Source: an uncultured Gemmatimonadales bacterium
Lineage (GTDB): Bacteria; Gemmatimonadota; Gemmatimonadetes; Gemmatimonadales; GWC2-71-9
Reading direction: 5' to 3'
Assembly (NCBI GenBank): GCA_963795085.1
Contig: CAWCFX010000006.1
Coordinates: 780,138 to 844,137, forward strand
Length of the DNA stretch: 64,000 nt
Positions within the stretch are counted from its first letter, which is position 1, and every line of letters begins with the position of its first letter. Shown here in pieces: positions 29,486 through 61,117 of the stretch. The notes below the pieces were generated by a model, which worked only from the letters and a program-made list of their open reading frames with translations, did not search any database and was not told where the DNA came from. Made by a program: the position numbers and the translations under genes.

Positions 29486-30376
29486 ATGCGAGTCATCCTG
29501 ATCTATAATAGCAAGGCCGGCGATGACAACCGGGGCGCGGAAATGCTGGCGCTGGTCCAGGCGGCAGGGCACCAGGTCCGGGCCATCGATAAAAAGGCCG
29601 ATTTCAGCGAGTCGCTCCGCGGCCCCGCCGACCTGGTGGTCGCGGCGGGCGGAGACGGCACGGTCGCCAAGGTAGCCCGCCACATGGTGGGATCGGACAT
29701 TCCCTTCACCCTGCTCCCCATCGGCACCGCCAATAATCTCGCCTTCTCGCTGGGACTGGACGGCGACCCCGAATTGCTGATCGCCGGGTGGAACCATGCC
29801 GTCGTCCGGCCCATGGACGCGGTGATCACCGAACACCCGGAAGGCAAGACCGTGTTGTTCGAGAGCGCCGGGGTGGGCCTCTTCACGGAGGCCATGTGCC
29901 ACGCGACCAGCCGGGAGCACGGGGAGGAAACCCGGTCCGCGGAGGAGCGTTTCGCGCGCGACTTTCGATTCCTCCGCCGGCTGGCCGGCACCCTGGAACC
30001 GGTGCCCTGCACCGTCACGGTGGACGGCGAGACCACCCGGGAACCGGTGCTGCTCCTCGAGATCATGAACTCCCGACAGATCGGCTCCCGCGTTCTCTTC
30101 GCGCCCCGGGCGGACATGGCGGACGGCGAGCTCGACCTGGTGCTCGTCACCGAGCGGGACCGCGCGCTGCTCCAGACTTTCCTGGACCGGGGGCCCCTTG
30201 ATGACTACCCGCCACACCTGCCGGTCCGCCGTGGCACTCACGTCCGGGTATCCGGAACTGGCGGCAGGATTCACCTCGGCGACGACATCGTCCGGATAGC
30301 AGGAAGCGATGAACCGTGGACGCTGGACGCGCGCATCCACCCCGGCGCGGTCCGGCTCCTCGTTCCGGCAACCTGA
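29486..30376 (+). CDS. Diacylglycerol/lipid kinase family protein
   Basis: GGDGT, PIGTANNLA, DGELD. Confidence 0.9.
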   Translation: MRVILIYNSKAGDDNRGAEMLALVQAAGHQVRAIDKKADFSESLRGPADLVVAAGGDGTVAKVARHMVGSDIPFTLLPIGTANNLAFSLGLDGDPELLIAGWNHAVVRPMDAVITEHPEGKTVLFESAGVGLFTEAMCHATSREHGEETRSAEERFARDFRFLRRLAGTLEPVPCTVTVDGETTREPVLLLEIMNSRQIGSRVLFAPRADMADGELDLVLVTERDRALLQTFLDRGPLDDYPPHLPVRRGTHVRVSGTGGRIHLGDDIVRIAGSDEPWTLDARIHPGAVRLLVPAT

Positions 30377-30507: not shown

Positions 30508-31413
30508 TCAGGCCAGGTGGCTCCTGAGCAGCTCCCGGAACGAGTCGGGCCCGATCACCTGGGCCTCGGCGCCATACTGCAGGACGTGGCGTACCAGCCA
30601 CTCCGGGCTGGCTACCTGGTAGGTCACCACCACACCGCCATCAGCCGCCACCACCGCATCGGGATGGCGCTCCCGAATCCACCGGGCAATCGCCGGTGAG
30701 AACCGGACCTGGACGGGGGTCGTGCCGTCCGCCGGCGGATGAAACGAGCCGGACGGCGGCGTGAAGTCGGGGCGCGGCGTATAATAGCCTTCCATGACCA
30801 GGGCATCGAGCACCCGGTCGGCCCGAAAATGGCGCCAGCCGTTCGCCAGTTCGCACCATGCCACGATGTAGGTGTGTCCGCCGTCTTCCAGCACCTGGTA
30901 GGGATGGATGACCCGGTTGATCCCGCCAATGCTGCGCTCGCCGGTGTAGCGGATCTCGACCTTGCGGCGGTCGGTGATCGCCCGGCGGACCAGGGTGCTG
31001 ACCGGCGGGATGACCCGGCCTCCGCCTTGAAGGGCCTGGGGTGGCCGCTCCGACGTGAGCAGGAGACTGGCCAGGGCGCTGCTCAGCGCCGGCGCCCCTT
31101 CTTCCGCCAGCAACCCCATCTGGACCGCGACCAGCTCATCCCGGGTGAACCGGATCGGCCGGCGAAAGGGGCCGCCACTCCGAAGCGAAATCCGGTCGCC
31201 CTCCTGGAAGGCGCTGAGGGAGAGGAGCCAGTCGGCGTCGGAGTCGTCGCCCAGCCTGGTCATGGCCCGGACGTCCGCCTCGATCTGCCGGCGGGTGGTG
31301 CCGAAGCGCTCGGCCAGTTCGGCAATCGGGGTATCCTCCTCGCCGCGCTGACTCCGCCGGGTCAGCTCCGCGACCAGGCTGACGATCCGGTTGACCTGCT
31401 CCGCCGAGCTCAC
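30508..31413 (-). CDS. PafC-like HTH-WYL-WCX regulator
   Basis: N-terminal HTH (IAELAERFGTT..QIEAD), RPIRFT, YIVAWCE...RHFRADRV, VLQYG.EA. Confidence 0.88.
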   Translation of the reverse strand: MSSAEQVNRIVSLVAELTRRSQRGEEDTPIAELAERFGTTRRQIEADVRAMTRLGDDSDADWLLSLSAFQEGDRISLRSGGPFRRPIRFTRDELVAVQMGLLAEEGAPALSSALASLLLTSERPPQALQGGGRVIPPVSTLVRRAITDRRKVEIRYTGERSIGGINRVIHPYQVLEDGGHTYIVAWCELANGWRHFRADRVLDALVMEGYYTPRPDFTPPSGSFHPPADGTTPVQVRFSPAIARWIRERHPDAVVAADGGVVVTYQVASPEWLVRHVLQYGAEAQVIGPDSFRELLRSHLA

Positions 31414-31422
31414 CGGTGTGCC

Positions 31423-32499
31423 TCAGGCATAGAGCTGAGCGACCTGGCCACGCAATGCTTCCAGTTCAACGCGGGTCTCCTGGGGTGAAAGGACGTCGGC
31501 CTGCCGGCGGAAGGTGAGCAGCCACCGGAGAAAGGGATGCAGGTCCTGCACGCTGAAATCGATGATCGCGCCGCCGTCGTCCAGCATCGGCTCGACCGGT
31601 TCTCCCAGGTCCTGGGCCATGACCCAGCGAGACTCGGGGAAGGCGAAGCGCACCCGGACCCGGGTGGGCTGCCCGCCGGAGAGCTGCCAGGGCGCCCGCC
31701 CCAGGTAGGCCCGGATCGAGAAGTCGGCGGGGACGGTAAAGCGGGCCTGCTTGCCTTTTTGCAGGGCGGTCTGGCGCATGCGGTCCACCCGGAACACCCG
31801 GAGTGCGTCGCGGTCCCGGGCGCGGCCCACGCAATACCAGCGGCCCCAATTGAAAAAGAGCCCGAAGGGTTCGATATCCCGCGGTTCCTCCCGGTTGCGC
31901 CCGATCGAGTGGTAACTGCAGGTCACCGCGTTCCGCTCAGCCACCGCCTGCTGCAGCACCTCGAGGGAGCGGGTGGTTTCCCCGCCGGTCGCCGCGGCCA
32001 GTACCCGCTCCACCGCGGCCTGGGGCAGCGGCAGGTCGAACTCCAGTTTGCGCCGGGCCGATGCGGCCGCGGATCCAATCGGCGATTCAGCCCGCTGCGC
32101 CACCAGCTGGGTGGCCCGGTCCAGCACTTCGAGATCCCCGGGCGACACCGGTACCCGGGCCAGGCCCTGGTAAAGCTGTTCCGGTATCCCCGACTGGTGA
32201 AGCTCGAGATACGGGAGGTAGAACGAACCGGGCGAGAGACGGTACCCGGTGGCCGGCTCATCCCCCTGGGCATCGGGGATCGGCACGGTTTCGATGCTGA
32301 TGCCCAGTCCGCGGAGCTCGTCCTTGTCGCGCTCGAACATTCGGCGGGTGATCTCTCCTCCCTTTCCCCCCGGCACGTCCTCCTCGTCCTCCTCGTACCC
32401 ATGCACGCTCCGGTAGATGTCGGCCCGGCTCACCGGGAACCGGTGTTGCAGCAGGTAGGCAATGAGATCGAGCCAGCGGGCGGTCTTGGCAGCGCTCAT
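31423..32499 (-). CDS. PafB-like HTH-WYL-WCX regulator
   Basis: RMFERDKDELRGLGI (PafB signature), GYRL, WYCVG...RVFRVDRM. Confidence 0.9.
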   Translation of the reverse strand: MSAAKTARWLDLIAYLLQHRFPVSRADIYRSVHGYEEDEEDVPGGKGGEITRRMFERDKDELRGLGISIETVPIPDAQGDEPATGYRLSPGSFYLPYLELHQSGIPEQLYQGLARVPVSPGDLEVLDRATQLVAQRAESPIGSAAASARRKLEFDLPLPQAAVERVLAAATGGETTRSLEVLQQAVAERNAVTCSYHSIGRNREEPRDIEPFGLFFNWGRWYCVGRARDRDALRVFRVDRMRQTALQKGKQARFTVPADFSIRAYLGRAPWQLSGGQPTRVRVRFAFPESRWVMAQDLGEPVEPMLDDGGAIIDFSVQDLHPFLRWLLTFRRQADVLSPQETRVELEALRGQVAQLYA

Positions 32500-32708
32500 G
32501 GAAAAGTCCTCGCGGGCCTGGGAGGTCGCGACGTTAGATCCGCAAAAACCCGAGATCGCGGCCCGCCCAGCACCGACCGGCGGGCAAGCCGGCTCAGGTG
32601 CGGACAGGCGAGAACGTTGCTCAGGTCGGTCGCCGAATTGACCAGGACGCCATCACGTGGATGCATGCGATTCCAGTATGGCGCGGGAATGCCCGGCGCG
32701 GGAGGGGG

Positions 32709-33977
32709 TCAATCGCTCCGCCGCTTCCGGCGGATCACCTTCCCGTACTGCTGCTTTGATTCCAGCGCCGCCAGGGATTGGGCCCAGAAGTATTTCCGGT
32801 CACTCGGGCCGAAGCGCCCCGCTTCGAGGTCGGCAGCTTCGGCCTCGAGGTCGCGCTGCGTCTCCCGGAGATCGTCATCGAGCTGGATCTGGCAGAACCT
32901 CTCCACCACCGAGCGAAGGGTCCGGGCCGCGTCGGCATGGTCGCCATGATCGGCCTGCTTGAGCGCCGCCTCCCGGGCCCGGGCGACCTCGAACCGAAGG
33001 AAACTGCTCTCGACCACGGGGTCGAGGTGGCTGGCGCCGTCCAGCAGGGCCTGGATCGGCATGGTGATCGTCCGGTGCTCGATGCCGTCGGGTTCGATGA
33101 CCTGGGCTTCCACCCGTACCTGGGCCACCTGCACGGGGCCCAGGTCGGTCACGTTCTCCGCATGCACGACGATCCCCAGTGACTGGGGAGACGACCCGTA
33201 GAGGTCGCCCAGCGGGGCCCGCCAGGCGCCTTCCGCTGTCCGGGTCACCGGCAGCGGCTGCAGGAAGGAGACGCCGGCCACCGAGGGATGGGTCGCCGTG
33301 ACTTCGACGCTCACGTTCTGGGCGGCCAGCGACACCAGGCCTTCGATTTCCTGGCCGAAGATGGCGCTCATCTGGCCAGTTTCCTCGACATACCAGAAGT
33401 TACCCCGGCCGGCGCGGGCCATGGCCATCAGCAGGTCTTCGTTGAAGCCTGGACCAAACCCGATGCAGGTGGTGCTGATCCGCTGGTCCGCCAGGTTCCC
33501 TGCCAGTCCGGCCAACTGCGCCGGGTCGGCGACTCCCGCGTTGGCCTGGCCATCGGTCAGCAGGACTACCCGGTTGGTGCCCTCCACCAGCCCGCTCCGG
33601 ACCAGCGACGTGCCCTCGAGCCAGCCCCCGGACAGGTTGGTGGTGCCCCCGGAAGTGACATGCCGGAGGGCCTGGATGGCGGCCTCCCTGCCGTCGGCGC
33701 CCAGGGTGCGGGCGGCAAAGAGCCGATTGACCTCGCCGTCAAATGTGACGATGGCCAGCCGGTCTCCCGGCAGCAGAAACCGGATGAACCACTCGGCGGC
33801 CTCCTTTGCGGCGGCCAGCGGCTCCCCACTCATGGAGCCCGACCGGTCCAGCACCAGCGCCACATTGATCGGGGGCCGGACCACCCGCGGTTCGGCGCTC
33901 AGGGTCACCAGGACTCCGACCTGGTGGGCGTTGGACATGGTCACGAACTGGGTGCTGACCTGGTGGGATACGTTCAC
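32709..33977 (-). CDS. vWA domain protein
   Basis: MIDAS DRSGS, GTTNL, LLTDGQAN, IGFG. Confidence 0.92.
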   Translation of the reverse strand: MNVSHQVSTQFVTMSNAHQVGVLVTLSAEPRVVRPPINVALVLDRSGSMSGEPLAAAKEAAEWFIRFLLPGDRLAIVTFDGEVNRLFAARTLGADGREAAIQALRHVTSGGTTNLSGGWLEGTSLVRSGLVEGTNRVVLLTDGQANAGVADPAQLAGLAGNLADQRISTTCIGFGPGFNEDLLMAMARAGRGNFWYVEETGQMSAIFGQEIEGLVSLAAQNVSVEVTATHPSVAGVSFLQPLPVTRTAEGAWRAPLGDLYGSSPQSLGIVVHAENVTDLGPVQVAQVRVEAQVIEPDGIEHRTITMPIQALLDGASHLDPVVESSFLRFEVARAREAALKQADHGDHADAARTLRSVVERFCQIQLDDDLRETQRDLEAEAADLEAGRFGPSDRKYFWAQSLAALESKQQYGKVIRRKRRSD

Positions 33978-34004
33978 GGCACGGCTCCGGTAATGGGTGA
34001 GGAC

Positions 34005-34026
34005 AGGCTACCGGAGGGGTGTGACA
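34005..34026 (-). promoter_or_regulatory. PafBC-type promoter (-26/-10)
   Basis: TGTCAC-ACCCCTCCGG-TAGCCT, about 28 nt upstream of the vWA GTG. Confidence 0.65.
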
Positions 34027-34059: not shown

Positions 34060-34560
34060 GGATTCCAGGACAGGTTCGATCGCAGGCCAGCTCCCCATGC
34101 GGCCTCGGTCCGGTGGATCCACCATTGTTCGAGGACGCGGGGAGTACGGAATTCGGCTGGTCATGGGGAACGAGCAGAAACGCTCCAGCAGGACGACGCG
34201 CAACCCGGCCTTGGCGGCGAGCGATTGTATCTGGCCCGAGGCATTGGCCCGGGAGTAGGTTCGGAAGACGTGCCCATGGGCCCGCCCCTCCGCTGCATGG
34301 GCGACCCAGGAGCGCCAGGACGGGTGAAGCAGGATGGACATGGCAGGACCACCGGGTGGCCTCGGTGGGCGTGCCGAAAGACGAACTTCCGCCCGGGGCG
34401 CCAGTACTCGAGCTACCTCGCCGAGAACCAGAGCCGGATCCCGAAGGTGCTCGAGGACCATGTTGGCGGTCACCACGTCAAAGGATCCGTCGGGGAAGGG
34501 GAGGCTATCGCCGGTGCCCCCACCCGGTGTGTGAGATTCGGAGTCGCCGAAGGTGATGAA
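34060..34560 (-). pseudogene. Degraded class I SAM methyltransferase (bounds approximate)
   Basis: LPFPDGSFDVVTANMVLEHLRDP..VLGEVARVLAP is present; the frame is disrupted afterwards and motif I is missing. Confidence 0.65.
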
Positions 34561-34895
34561 CCACCATGTCGCAGCCAACCAGATAGCGCGCCGATCACTG
34601 GGTTAGCCCTTCGGGCGAAGGACCGGCCAGCCCCCATGCAGCCTGGCGCCGGCGCCCAGGTCGAGCCAGCGGCAGCCTGAAACCACGGTGCCGCCCAACG
34701 CACGGGCGGTACCGATTCTGGTATATTCCCTGGTTTCTCCCGGTGGTCTGGAGAGAATAATCGAGGCTCTGGGGTGTGACAGTAGGCGGGAGCCCGCAAT
34801 CCAGGAGGCGATTTGAGGGGAGCCGACCCCCGAAACGCCCCACATGCGATTAAGTTGCTTCTATTCACCCACTTCCCTTCCCCCTGGCAGGCCCA

Positions 34896-60386: not shown

Positions 60387-60630
60387 ATCCCAACCCCCTG
60401 CGACCGAGCGAAGCGAGGAAGTCCTTTAGGGTCCCCCTTCCCCCGTAGATCCCTAACCCCCTATCCCCCTTCCCCTGTTCAGGGGAAGGGGGGACGTGCC
60501 TCGGTCCCAAGCCCAACGGGGAACAGTGAACAGTGAACGGGGCTAGAGGCGAGAGTCGTCCGGGAATAGCGCAGCTGTTCTCAACTCCGGCCCCGCTCAC
60601 CGTTTACCGCTCACCGTTTACCGTTTACCG
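60387..60630. repeat. Nested hairpin repeat cluster 2
   Basis: Same units as cluster 1. Confidence 0.92.
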
Positions 60631-60671
60631 AAATTGAGGACAGGCTGAAGCTGCCCTCGGCCTATCAAGAT

Positions 60672-60693
60672 TGTCACACCCTCCCGCTAACCT
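60672..60693 (+). promoter_or_regulatory. PafBC-type promoter (-26/-10)
   Basis: TGTCAC-ACCCTCCCGC-TAACCT. Confidence 0.6.
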
Positions 60694-60721
60694 CTGATTG
60701 ACCACTTCAAGGAGGTACCCC

Positions 60722-61117
60722 ATCGGCAGCCCGCACTTCCCCACCCCCGACCGCTCCAACTTCACCCCCAATTTCTCCAGGACCGCTGACAACGACGTGC
60801 TCGACATCGGCTGGGCCGAAGGGCTCCTGTCCGATGGACGGCCCTATCGGCTGGAGTGCTGGGCCCAGGACCAGGTCACCAGCGTATCCATCTTCGTCGC
60901 CCGGGCGGGGTTGGAGGATCTCGAGGGGACGGGTCTCCAGGCGTTCCTGGAGCGGGAGCAGCTGGTCCAGTTCGTCTCGCCGCGACGCTTTGCCAGCGCA
61001 CAGCCGTTCACCGACCCCAGCGGCAACGACCTGCTTTCGATCAGTGTAGTCGTGGGGGACGACGAGGAGAGGTATGTCGCCGGGGGACCGGCGCTTCAGC
61101 GGTACTCGCGGTCGTAA
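60722..61117 (+). CDS. Hypothetical protein; apparent ATC start (the ORF track uses TTG at 60698)
   Basis: AAGGAGG at 60709-60715 is followed by an in-frame ATC after 6 nt; protein-like sequence (DIGWAEG.LSDGRPYRLECW). Confidence 0.7.
   Translation: MGSPHFPTPDRSNFTPNFSRTADNDVLDIGWAEGLLSDGRPYRLECWAQDQVTSVSIFVARAGLEDLEGTGLQAFLEREQLVQFVSPRRFASAQPFTDPSGNDLLSISVVVGDDEERYVAGGPALQRYSRS

Follow-up and report, generated by a model that had tools for sequence, protein, structure and literature searches.

A probable PafBC-type activator with a small, rewired regulon in Gemmatimonadota

To our knowledge, PafBC and the sigma adaptation through which it works have been described in Actinobacteria only, and recA is the archetypal PafBC target. 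The reference systems used for comparison here are those of Mycobacterium smegmatis and M. tuberculosis and of Arthrobacter aurescens (PDB 7P5X, 9FND and 6SJ9). The pathway is placed in Actinobacteria by PMC8635444, which gives the mycobacterial PafBC promoter as tGTCgg-N10-tA-N3-T and lists K5, R8, R46, R50 and K52 as the DNA-contact residues of the PafB helix-turn-helix domain (HTH-B), with R46 and R50 reading the GTC triplet and K5, R8 and K52 touching the DNA backbone. Single-stranded DNA (ssDNA) is bound by WYL residues, namely R181, Y196, R204, R208, R211 and R214 of PafB and R201 and R204 of PafC (PMC11804915). A full-text literature search returned no paper pairing PafBC with Gemmatimonadetes, Gemmatimonadota or non-actinobacterial.

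The window analysed here, a stretch of 64,000 nucleotides from a Gemmatimonadota soil bacterium, carries on its minus strand a vWA gene followed, after a gap, by two WYL genes spaced 9 nt apart, the first of which contains RRMFERDKDELRGLGI (Table 1). The tandem WYL genes, the co-oriented vWA gene and the motif ahead of it were found with the coordinates and features given in the first-pass annotation. Its description of the host as a diderm without pafA was also confirmed, as BamA is present in the genome, which marks a diderm, and a search for a Pup ligase through the genome, 93% complete, gave none. LexA is encoded as well. The pair does not lie in a pafA/Pup-proteasome locus, a location that counts as a PafBC hallmark and that reflects the naming of the paf genes, not the working of the factor.

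Table 1. Features of the WYL-vWA locus and of the promoter boxes in the window
Feature	Position	Strand	Description
WYL gene 2, PafC orthologue P0002	30508-31413	-	301 aa; HTH_PafC, WYL, WCX
WYL gene 1, PafB orthologue P0001	31423-32499	-	358 aa; wHTH, WYL, WCX
vWA-pafB spacer	32500-32708	-	209 nt; without box, consensus promoter or terminator-like site
vWA gene	32709-33977	-	422 aa; GTG start; Pfam VWA 61.8 bits
Box 1, TGTCACACCC-CTCCGG-TAGCCT	34005-34026	-	-26 element and -10 hexamer, no -35 found
Orphan half box TGTCACACCCC	34760-34781	-	without -10 hexamer; ahead of methyltransferase remnant
Box 2, TGTCACACCC-TCCCGC-TAACCT	60672-60693	+	second exact match in the genome, inside the window
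Orphan ORF P0003	60698-61117	+	139 aa, directly after box 2; start codon uncertain

Pfam assigned WYL and WCX domains to P0001 and HTH_PafC (43.5 bits, cut-off 32), WYL and WCX domains to P0002, while no NCBIfam model matched either protein. Among PDB sequences, P0001 matched the PafB half of 6sj9 (3.7e-26) and M. smegmatis PafB (7p5x_AY, 68 bits), compared with only 23.6 bits for PafC, and P0002 matched PafC (7p5x_AX, 78.4 bits) and the C half of 6sj9, with PafB not among its listed matches. Profiles built from 39 PafB-like and 29 PafC-like Gemmatimonadota proteins were likewise run against PDB sequences. The PafB-like profile scored 101.9 bits with PafB, 54.6 with PafC, 39.7 with DriD and 26.5 with CapW, and the PafC-like profile 151.2 bits with PafC, end to end, 76.2 with PafB and 70.9 with DriD; the scores of CapW and BrxR (22-43 bits) were the lowest among the compared families. 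In the single-sequence and profile searches, each subunit thus resembled the actinobacterial protein of the same name more closely than it did the partner subunit or other WYL regulators, and in the Atlas P0002 falls among PafC clusters of Actinomycetota and Gemmatimonadota. P0001 and P0002 are reciprocal best matches of mycobacterial PafB and PafC and count as their counterparts, with similarity at the level of orthology. The 150 representative homologues also include fused forms of approximately 680-760 aa.

Aligned to 7p5x_AY, P0001 has equivalents of K5, R8, R46, R50 and K52, which are kept in 33, 34, 34, 35 and 35, respectively, of 35 Gemmatimonadota homologues. The ssDNA-binding WYL residues of PafB named above are all identical in P0001, as are those of PafC in P0002, and they are mostly kept among the same 35 homologues. 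The resemblance to PafBC noted at first pass was upheld both by the reciprocal matches and by the retention of the GTC-reading arginines and ssDNA-binding residues. Two further positions align with other residues: the wing-tip Trp of PafB aligns with Ala in P0001, inside a gapped stretch (PDAQGDEPA) where the alignment is uncertain, and D62 of PafC, an acidic residue that contacts sigma domain 4, aligns beside gaps with Ser in P0002, so that the RNA polymerase contacts may differ. In 28 of 33 Gemmatimonadota loci the gene immediately after pafB encodes a PafC homologue, and in most of these the stop codon of the one overlaps the start codon of the other. A model of the PafB-PafC complex scored 0.62 (best control 0.00), a mark reached by 116 of 157 solved pairs and 2 of 215 mismatched pairs, with at least 42% of contacts in common between runs and a partner pLDDT of at least 72; as a similar complex has already been solved, this score shows likeness only, not binding. 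The model may owe its score to the PafBC structures already solved.

Ahead of the vWA gene stands TGTCAC-ACCCCTCCGG-TAGCCT (34026-34005, minus strand), the final base of which lies 28 nt upstream of the GTG codon; the transcription start is predicted near 33998. For the first-pass annotation, occurrence of the degenerate form TGTC[AG][CG]-N10-TA-N3-T at background frequency and not before repair genes was to count against its proposal. The degenerate form occurred 15 times, where a first-order Markov model predicts approximately 19.9 occurrences and the reversed pattern gave 24. This is background, so the loose motif fails if that rule is taken literally. The longer box TGTCMCACCC-N6-TANNNT, by contrast, has two exact matches where 0.058 are expected, which supports the claim that the site upstream of the vWA gene is a conserved promoter of PafBC geometry and not a chance occurrence. 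With the refined box the core idea survives, though the regulon it implies is small and of another make-up. P0003, the ORF behind the second match, has no Pfam or PADLOC match, and no relative of it was found in 100 genomes of the same family. The half box at 34760-34781 is a 2-mismatch match with both mismatches in the -10 part, possibly a decayed promoter. Matches with one and two mismatches numbered 1 and 11 in this genome, compared with 1 and 17 for the control, and one-mismatch matches in five relatives numbered 24 versus 27; since these counts fall to background, the regulon cannot be extended by pattern alone. Boxes that retain the 10-nt word without a mismatch and carry CAnnnT or GAnnnT in place of the -10 hexamer are an exception to this noise.

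Among 201 Gemmatimonadota genomes, 45 box matches were found in 29, compared with 8 matches for the reversed control; the fixed letters of this 45-site set are imposed by the search pattern itself. In its layout of 22 nt the box is identical to the PafBC promoter of mycobacteria; it departs from that promoter in the letters that follow GTC. A same-strand ORF begins 2-69 nt downstream of the box at 22 of the 41 sites examined. With up to two mismatches allowed, the box was present in the upstream regions of pafB on the sense strand in 12 of 36 cases versus 2 of 36 on the other strand, and this position directly before pafB suggests that autoregulation is common in the phylum. De novo, the top 8-mer in 35 pafB upstream regions was TGTCACAC, found in 5 sequences as opposed to 0.1 in shuffles.

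A broad LexA-independent repair regulon was not borne out. Besides the background frequency of the loose motif and the presence of LexA, recA carried no box in any of six PafBC-positive genomes, and the hallmark PafBC regulon including recA and many DNA-repair genes was not found. TGTC-N12-TANNNT matched 50 times, 23 of them outside any confident ORF, and no known repair gene was present among 11 scanned genes downstream of loose-pattern intergenic matches. The products of these genes comprise, among others, a sulfate permease, a response regulator, an RHS protein, a beta-lactamase-fold protein, a sulfatase, an ATPase and proteins without family. In relatives, the box heads pafB, nucleases (DUF2779 among them), helicases, HmaA (E = 0, full length), Cas4-Cas1, a DruE-like helicase with HNH and a DEDDh exonuclease. 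DUF2779 was considered as a core target and rejected, the box (up to two mismatches) being present at only 4 of 27 genes with readable upstream DNA, a count that leaves out one locus from an unpublished genome; DUF2779 is an occasional target. Judged from these sequences, the switch appears to act on itself and on the vWA scaffold protein, and in relatives also on genes for nucleases and phage defence, rather than on recA.

The defence-like character of many of these genes (HmaA, the DruE-like helicase, Cas4-Cas1, the exonuclease) would also fit a repressor of the CapW/BrxR kind residing in defence islands, with the box as a promoter-overlapping operator that is relieved upon DNA damage or infection. 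PADLOC models of CRISPR-associated WYL proteins match both P0001 and P0002, and known defence-linked WYL factors are ssDNA-sensing repressors (PMC11662680). The box, however, is asymmetric and of fixed orientation, stands at a constant 6 nt from the -10-like hexamer and contains no inverted repeat, and two distinct paralogous subunits take the place of a homodimer; a single-gene homodimer with a palindromic operator beside a defence system, the hallmark of CapW/BrxR, was not found here. The 12 positions read upstream of the box, which cover the -35 area in part, showed no conservation, and hence no -35 element was found for a repressor to occlude. Together with profile scores of 22-43 bits, compared with 102-151 bits for PafB and PafC, this makes repression an unlikely explanation, and activation by a PafBC-type pair is the reading followed below.

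The vWA gene is the target most tightly linked to the box, which stands 46-181 nt upstream of 10 of 11 orthologues. Among 101 genomes of the same family, 13 were found to carry such an orthologue. The protein has an ArnB/Sec23-24-like architecture with an intact DxSxS MIDAS motif and is cytoplasmic, and its AlphaFold model (pLDDT 87) was closest in fold to ArnB (8s05) and a vWA protein (4fx5), with a TM of approximately 0.65. In this window pafB has no box of its own, the best match having five mismatches, and autoregulation thus needs read-through across the 209 nt separating it from the vWA gene. That gap might instead divide two separate units, with true PafBC orthologues expressed constitutively and no autoregulation at this locus, and mycobacterial PafBC levels are indeed unchanged upon DNA damage (PMC8635444). 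Moreover, two genomes (G045 and G125) have the reverse arrangement, pafBC first and then box-vWA. The box-vWA-pafB-pafC layout with pafB itself unboxed nevertheless recurs in two other genera, being found again in G252 (88-nt spacer, no box there) and G224. Within the gap neither a terminator-like site nor a consensus promoter was found (Table 1), its folding is unremarkable (z = -1.5), and elsewhere the box stands directly ahead of pafB, as described above. We therefore regard separate, unregulated units as very unlikely. The recurrent layout fits the proposed autoregulation through a vWA-pafB-pafC transcript, in which the three genes would be co-transcribed.

The box was 5-6 times commoner in genomes with PafB (19 of 50) than in others (10 of 151), and 16 of the 19 have a copy no further than 7 kb from pafB on one contig, often directly upstream. 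Five of the ten box-bearing genomes that were not PafB-positive were re-checked, and two of them turned out to hold a WYL pair next to the site. In the draft genomes G070, G137 and G130, and likewise in the draft genome G033, where the vWA gene is boxed, no WYL domain was detected. These four genomes would be accommodated if the box belonged to another factor, such as an alternative sigma factor, with PafBC merely sharing its islands, but this is highly improbable given the linkage to pafB, the joint conservation of the GTC core and of the arginines that read GTC in mycobacteria (PMC8635444), and a 5' element only 12 nt ahead of the -10 hexamer, too near for a -35.

Taken as a whole, the observations are probably best explained by a heterodimeric PafBC activator acting at GTC-box promoters, with vWA-pafBC autoregulation, beside LexA and not on recA. 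P0001 and P0002 would form a transcription activator with ssDNA as its putative ligand, in which the PafB HTH would bind the box by reading GTC of the -26 element TGTCMCACCC, 6 nt ahead of the TAnnnT -10 hexamer, with P0002 as the predicted PafB partner and sigma-facing subunit. As the box promoters appear to lack a -35, we propose that they recruit the housekeeping holoenzyme in the manner of sigma adaptation in mycobacteria. Two promoters would be driven in this genome, those of the vWA gene and of the orphan 139-aa ORF, and transcription from the former probably reads through into pafB-pafC, so that the pair would activate its own expression. Elsewhere in Gemmatimonadota, this box stands ahead of pafBC, the vWA gene, nucleases (DUF2779 among them), helicases and anti-phage genes, and the system would run beside LexA without control of recA. 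It is accordingly likely, in our estimate, that a PafBC-type activator exists outside Actinobacteria with a small, rewired regulon rather than a broad SOS-like one. A wider proposal is put forward more tentatively and as one piece: that sigma adaptation by PafBC reaches beyond Actinobacteria, and that in Gemmatimonadota the two-subunit ssDNA sensor and its promoter architecture may serve as a self-amplifying alarm, rewired away from SOS-like repair, which turns on an ArnB/Sec23-24-like vWA scaffold protein along with accessory genes for nucleases, helicases, CRISPR adaptation and Hma-type phage defence. If true, ssDNA arising from DNA damage or from phage would be linked to immunity in a diderm phylum, a link open to testing. 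The uncharacterised cytoplasmic vWA protein is flagged as the most faithful target of the box.

Among known systems, CapW and BrxR (PDB 7TB6, 7T8K) share the WYL-WCX sensor module and, in relatives of this locus, the nearness of anti-phage genes, but are single-gene homodimeric repressors, whereas the present box lacks symmetry and is coupled to a -10 hexamer. In Caulobacter crescentus, DriD (PDB 8TP8) is, like the proposed factor, an ssDNA-activated wHTH-WYL-WCX activator with a small SOS-independent regulon; it is a homodimer, however, and its profile scores (39.7 and 70.9 bits) lie far below those of PafB and PafC. DdaA of Moraxellaceae resembles the system in being a WYL activator through which repair genes as well as anti-phage systems, in that case restriction-modification and CRISPR-Cas, are coupled to DNA damage, but it is a single protein with a binding motif unlike the box, is reported to have replaced SOS, in contrast to the LexA-containing genome here, and its abstract does not describe a sigma-adaptation geometry (PMC12392091). 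The closest likeness is to PafBC itself, in the two adjacent paralogous wHTH-WYL-WCX genes, B then C, with reciprocal best similarity, in the GTC-reading arginine pair and the ssDNA-binding WYL residues, in the 22-nt hybrid promoter with GTC at -26, N10 after the sixth base and TAnnnT, and in the coexistence with LexA. The differences are the diderm host without pafA or Pup ligase, a longer -26 element diverging after GTC (TGTCMCACCC compared with tGTCgg), the wing-tip Trp that is not conserved (at a position of uncertain alignment), and a tiny regulon of two promoters, excluding recA, compared with approximately 150 genes in mycobacteria. The targets also differ, being the vWA protein, pafBC, DUF2779 and other nucleases, helicases and defence genes, and autoregulation appears common in Gemmatimonadota, whereas mycobacterial PafBC levels are reported to be constant. 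A second, distant phylum would hold the same subunits, DNA-reading residues and promoter geometry with a different -26 word and a different regulon, which would show how a regulon of this kind becomes rewired and offers a natural comparison for the contacts that are essential to sigma adaptation, the wing-tip Trp being one that is not kept.

The genome holding the window comprises 3.89 Mb in 6 contigs at 67% G+C, and the nearest loci elsewhere were found in records titled Gemmatimonadota or Gemmatimonadales. BamA and LexA are both encoded above their curated cut-offs, the former identifying the host as a diderm, and no Pup ligase was found in the genome, which is 93% complete. The tandem WYL genes, both intergenic gaps, the vWA gene and its upstream motif described in the first-pass annotation were all confirmed by re-reading and by Pfam (see table). 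P0001 (candidate PafB), in which RRMFERDKDELRGLGI is present, and P0002 (candidate PafC) carry the only two WYL domains of the whole genome, and a GGAG is located 8 nt ahead of the vWA GTG. The locus is flanked beyond pafC by an oppositely oriented lipid-kinase gene, overlapped by a 325-aa minus-strand ORF that lacks a family match and is unlikely to be a real gene. What looks like a decayed methyltransferase gene is found immediately upstream of box 1. Of the 95 positions of the Methyltransf_11 model, one of its frames covers only 50-90, and the LDLGAG-type N-terminal part is cut off by a stop codon together with a change of frame.

Features of the PafBC-like locus and of related sites (window positions unless a contig is given)
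Feature	Position	Strand	Remarks
Lipid-kinase gene	29486-30376	plus	diacylglycerol-kinase/YegS-type
P0002 gene	30508-31413	minus	301 aa, 9 nt after P0001 gene; Pfam HTH_PafC, WYL, WCX
P0001 gene	31423-32499	minus	358 aa; Pfam WYL, WCX
Spacer, vWA to P0001 gene		minus	209 nt
vWA gene	32709-33977	minus	422 aa, GTG start
Box 1, TGTCAC-ACCCCTCCGG-TAGCCT	34026-34005	minus	last base 28 nt before vWA GTG
Methyltransferase remnant	34069-34700	minus	class-I SAM type
Short direct repeats	60520-60640	plus	GAACAGT-type and CCGTTTA/CCGCTCA-type units, just upstream of box 2
Box 2, TGTCACACCC-TCCCGC-TAACCT	60672-60693	plus	near-twin of vWA site
L090 (HmaA locus)	G144:C42:22972-28318		two exact boxes 325 nt apart
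L073 (DUF2779-WYL locus)	G165:C2:504400-509421		685-aa fusion, box ahead, another WYL gene after

The proposal that the two WYL proteins are counterparts of PafB and PafC held up in searches of all PDB sequences and in profile scores, where each was closest to its respective namesake. In the PDB, P0001 best matched the fused PafBC of A. aurescens in its PafB half (6sj9, 3.7e-26), and it scored 68 bits against M. smegmatis PafB (7p5x_AY) versus only 23.6 bits against PafC. The top matches of P0002 were PafC of M. smegmatis (78.4 bits) and 6sj9 in its C half. Similarly, a PafB profile built from 39 Gemmatimonadota sequences scored 101.9 bits for PafB, 54.6 for PafC, 39.7 for DriD and 26.5 for CapW, and a PafC profile built from 29 sequences scored 151.2 bits for PafC in an end-to-end alignment, 76.2 for PafB, 70.9 for DriD and approximately 37-43 for CapW/BrxR. 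In the ESM Atlas, P0002 fell among PafC-type clusters with known members in Actinomycetota and Gemmatimonadota, and close P0001 homologues are named 'proteasome accessory factor B' in some JGI records.

In mycobacterial PafB, the GTC triplet has been described as being read by R46 and R50, with backbone contacts by K5, R8, K52 and R56, and ssDNA binding has been assigned to R181, Y196, R204, R208, R211 and R214 of PafB and R201 and R204 of PafC (PMC8635444, PMC11804915). HMMER alignments placed identical residues in P0001 and P0002 at all of these positions. Among 35 Gemmatimonadota PafB homologues, R46 was retained in 34, R50 and K52 in 35, K5 in 33 and R8 in 34, as were Y196 in 35 and R211 and R214 in 32 each of the WYL domains. 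Two RNA polymerase contact positions were not evidently conserved (PafB W70 to Ala, PafC D62 to Ser, both beside gaps). Judged from sequence, P0001 and P0002 show orthology-level similarity to PafB and PafC with conservation of the putative DNA-reading and ssDNA-binding residues. A PafC homologue followed pafB in 28 of 33 loci, mostly with overlapping stop and start codons, and the modelled P0001-P0002 complex scored 0.62 (best control 0.00; contacts shared by runs at least 42%, partner pLDDT at least 72), a mark attained by 116 of 157 pairs with a solved structure and by 2 of 215 mismatched ones; because PafBC structures have already been solved, the model indicates likeness rather than binding. 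The 150 top-scoring representative homologues of P0001 include approximately 14 proteins of 680-760 aa that matched in two stretches and are fused PafBC-like forms. L073 may be a rearranged pafBC locus.

The loose promoter pattern TGTC[AG][CG]-N10-TA-N3-T, put forward as the signature of a PafBC-type regulon, occurred at background frequency in this genome, with 15 matches, compared to an expectation of approximately 19.9 and to 24 matches of the reversed pattern. Box 2 was found among these matches, and the longer word was also seen in pafB upstream regions of relatives. In an unseeded count over 35 such regions, the top over-represented 8-mers were TGTCACAC, GTCACACC and TCACACCC, each in 5 sequences versus 0.1-0.2 in shuffled sequences and 1 on the opposite strand. 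With up to 2 mismatches, TGTCACACCC-N6-TANNNT was present on the sense strand of 12 of 36 pafB upstream regions and on the other strand of 2, the best background matches having 5-6 mismatches. The exact box TGTCMCACCC-N6-TANNNT occurred twice in this genome (0.058 expected), and 45 times in 29 of 201 Gemmatimonadota genomes (2 of the 45 from the unpublished genome G057), compared to 8 for the reversed control.

A search of the same 201 genomes returned P0001 homologues at E <= 1e-30 in 50, of which 19 carried the box, as opposed to 10 of the 151 others. Of these ten, five were re-checked: two (G125, G165) have two WYL genes adjoining the site, and G070, G137 and G130 yielded no WYL domain. In 16 of the 19 genomes with both, a box and pafB share a contig and are at most 7 kb apart, the box often standing immediately ahead of the gene. 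Among 41 box sites, 32 were outside any confident ORF and 7 more only in an over-extended frame of the following gene, and at 22 a GC3-supported ORF began 2-69 nt downstream on the same strand. There was no conservation in the 12 positions before or the 14 after the box, so that it is not a repeat element; the 12 upstream positions span only part of a possible -35 region, and its absence is covered to that extent.

Of 101 genomes from the same family, 13 encode an orthologue of the vWA protein. Upstream DNA was readable for 11 of these, and in 10 the box stands 46-181 nt ahead of the vWA start, either exact or with a single mismatch, which in every such case affects the first T of the -10; the best opposite-strand matches had at least 4 mismatches. 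In the ten vWA-positive genomes covered by the WYL check, the pair was confirmed in 9 and not found in G033. The order box-vWA-pafB-pafC recurs in G252 and G224, with box-free spacers of 88 and 515 nt. Taken together, the box with PafBC promoter geometry is enriched, gene-oriented and linked to pafBC and a conserved target. Visual inspection of the vWA protein itself revealed no signal peptide, and its DxSxS motif (DRSGS) is intact. In its confident AlphaFold model (pLDDT 87, pTM 0.84), the vWA domain is accompanied by a beta-sandwich and, at the C terminus, by a helical bundle. The closest folds were archaeal ArnB (8s05, TM 0.64-0.72), for which orthology to the Sec23/24 core has been described, and an actinobacterial Catenulispora vWA protein (4fx5, TM 0.66). 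We regard the vWA protein of the window as a putative cytoplasmic scaffold or adaptor. In M. smegmatis, a 'von Willebrand factor' protein, MSMEG_5511, has been tabulated as reduced upon deletion of pafBC (PMC5656591), a lead by name only.

Pfam was run on 64 ORFs downstream of the box sites, and PADLOC on 18 of these together with the four proteins of the window. The first gene was pafB at 6 sites, and at 4 more pafB followed a first gene encoding the vWA protein (window), a 1169-aa RNase-H-like/SF1 helicase, an ARPP-1 protein or a DUF2779-WYL fusion. A vWA orthologue came first in G125 and G045, and in G013 by the vWA-upstream search. DUF2779, placed among predicted 3'-5' exonucleases in PMC3985635, came first at 3 sites, but among 27 DUF2779 genes only 4 have the box. 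At 7 sites the box headed nuclease, helicase or defence genes. These encode full-length HmaA (PADLOC E = 0, two boxes ahead), a PD-(D/E)XK protein of 1084 aa, an HNH protein with a DruE-like helicase after it, a fused Cas4-Cas1, a DEDDh exonuclease, and a small protein ahead of REase-ARP and a ResIII helicase. Ig-like proteins came first at 2 sites, and the other sites preceded ORFs without family match or no clear ORF. HmaA, the helicase of the Hma anti-phage system, lies at L090 in G144, whose three further boxes precede the HNH and DruE-like pair, the PD-(D/E)XK protein and the Cas4-Cas1 fusion. The suggested repair regulon including recA was not borne out: in this and five other PafBC-positive genomes (6 of 6), no box was present within 400 nt of recA, the best match having 5-6 mismatches, and the loose pattern was unenriched.

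In this genome the box precedes only the vWA gene and P0003, the 139-aa orphan ORF after box 2, so the regulon readable from sequence would consist of two promoters, the former probably including pafBC. No relatives of P0003 were found in 100 genomes of the same family. P0003 has several candidate starts. The sole canonical in-frame codon upstream is a TTG at 60698, which begins 4 nt past the -10 hexamer, and the next canonical one is a GTG at 60797. Between them, an in-frame ATC (60722) stands 6 nt beyond a strong AGGAGG (60710-60715).

We infer that PafB would bind the GTC word of the box, that the PafB-PafC heterodimer would recruit the housekeeping holoenzyme to promoters without a -35, and that ssDNA would be the signal switching PafBC on. 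The vWA promoter would also feed pafBC in this genome, where the 209-nt spacer showed neither a terminator-like site nor a consensus promoter and had an unremarkable fold. The chief alternative, in which the pair would be a repressor like the defence-island WYL factors, is disfavoured by a box that is asymmetric and stands at a fixed distance from the -10 hexamer.

A literature search found no paper joining PafBC with Gemmatimonadetes, Gemmatimonadota or 'non-actinobacterial', and the PafBC set described in PMC6789036 is limited to Actinobacteria. Most features tested for membership were found, and the pair would be expected to work like PafBC. The box, with its GTC-containing word, twelve bases from TGTC to TA and then TAnnnT, has the same layout as the 22-nt tGTCgg-N10-tA-N3-T of mycobacterial PafBC promoters (PMC8635444). 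In contrast, neither the recA and repair regulon nor the wing-tip Trp of mycobacterial PafB is matched here, and the pafA linkage of actinobacterial PafBC, a historical rather than mechanistic feature, is absent. The small SOS-independent regulon resembles that of DriD, and its content that of DdaA of Moraxellaceae, described as a WYL activator of repair and anti-phage genes (PMC12392091).
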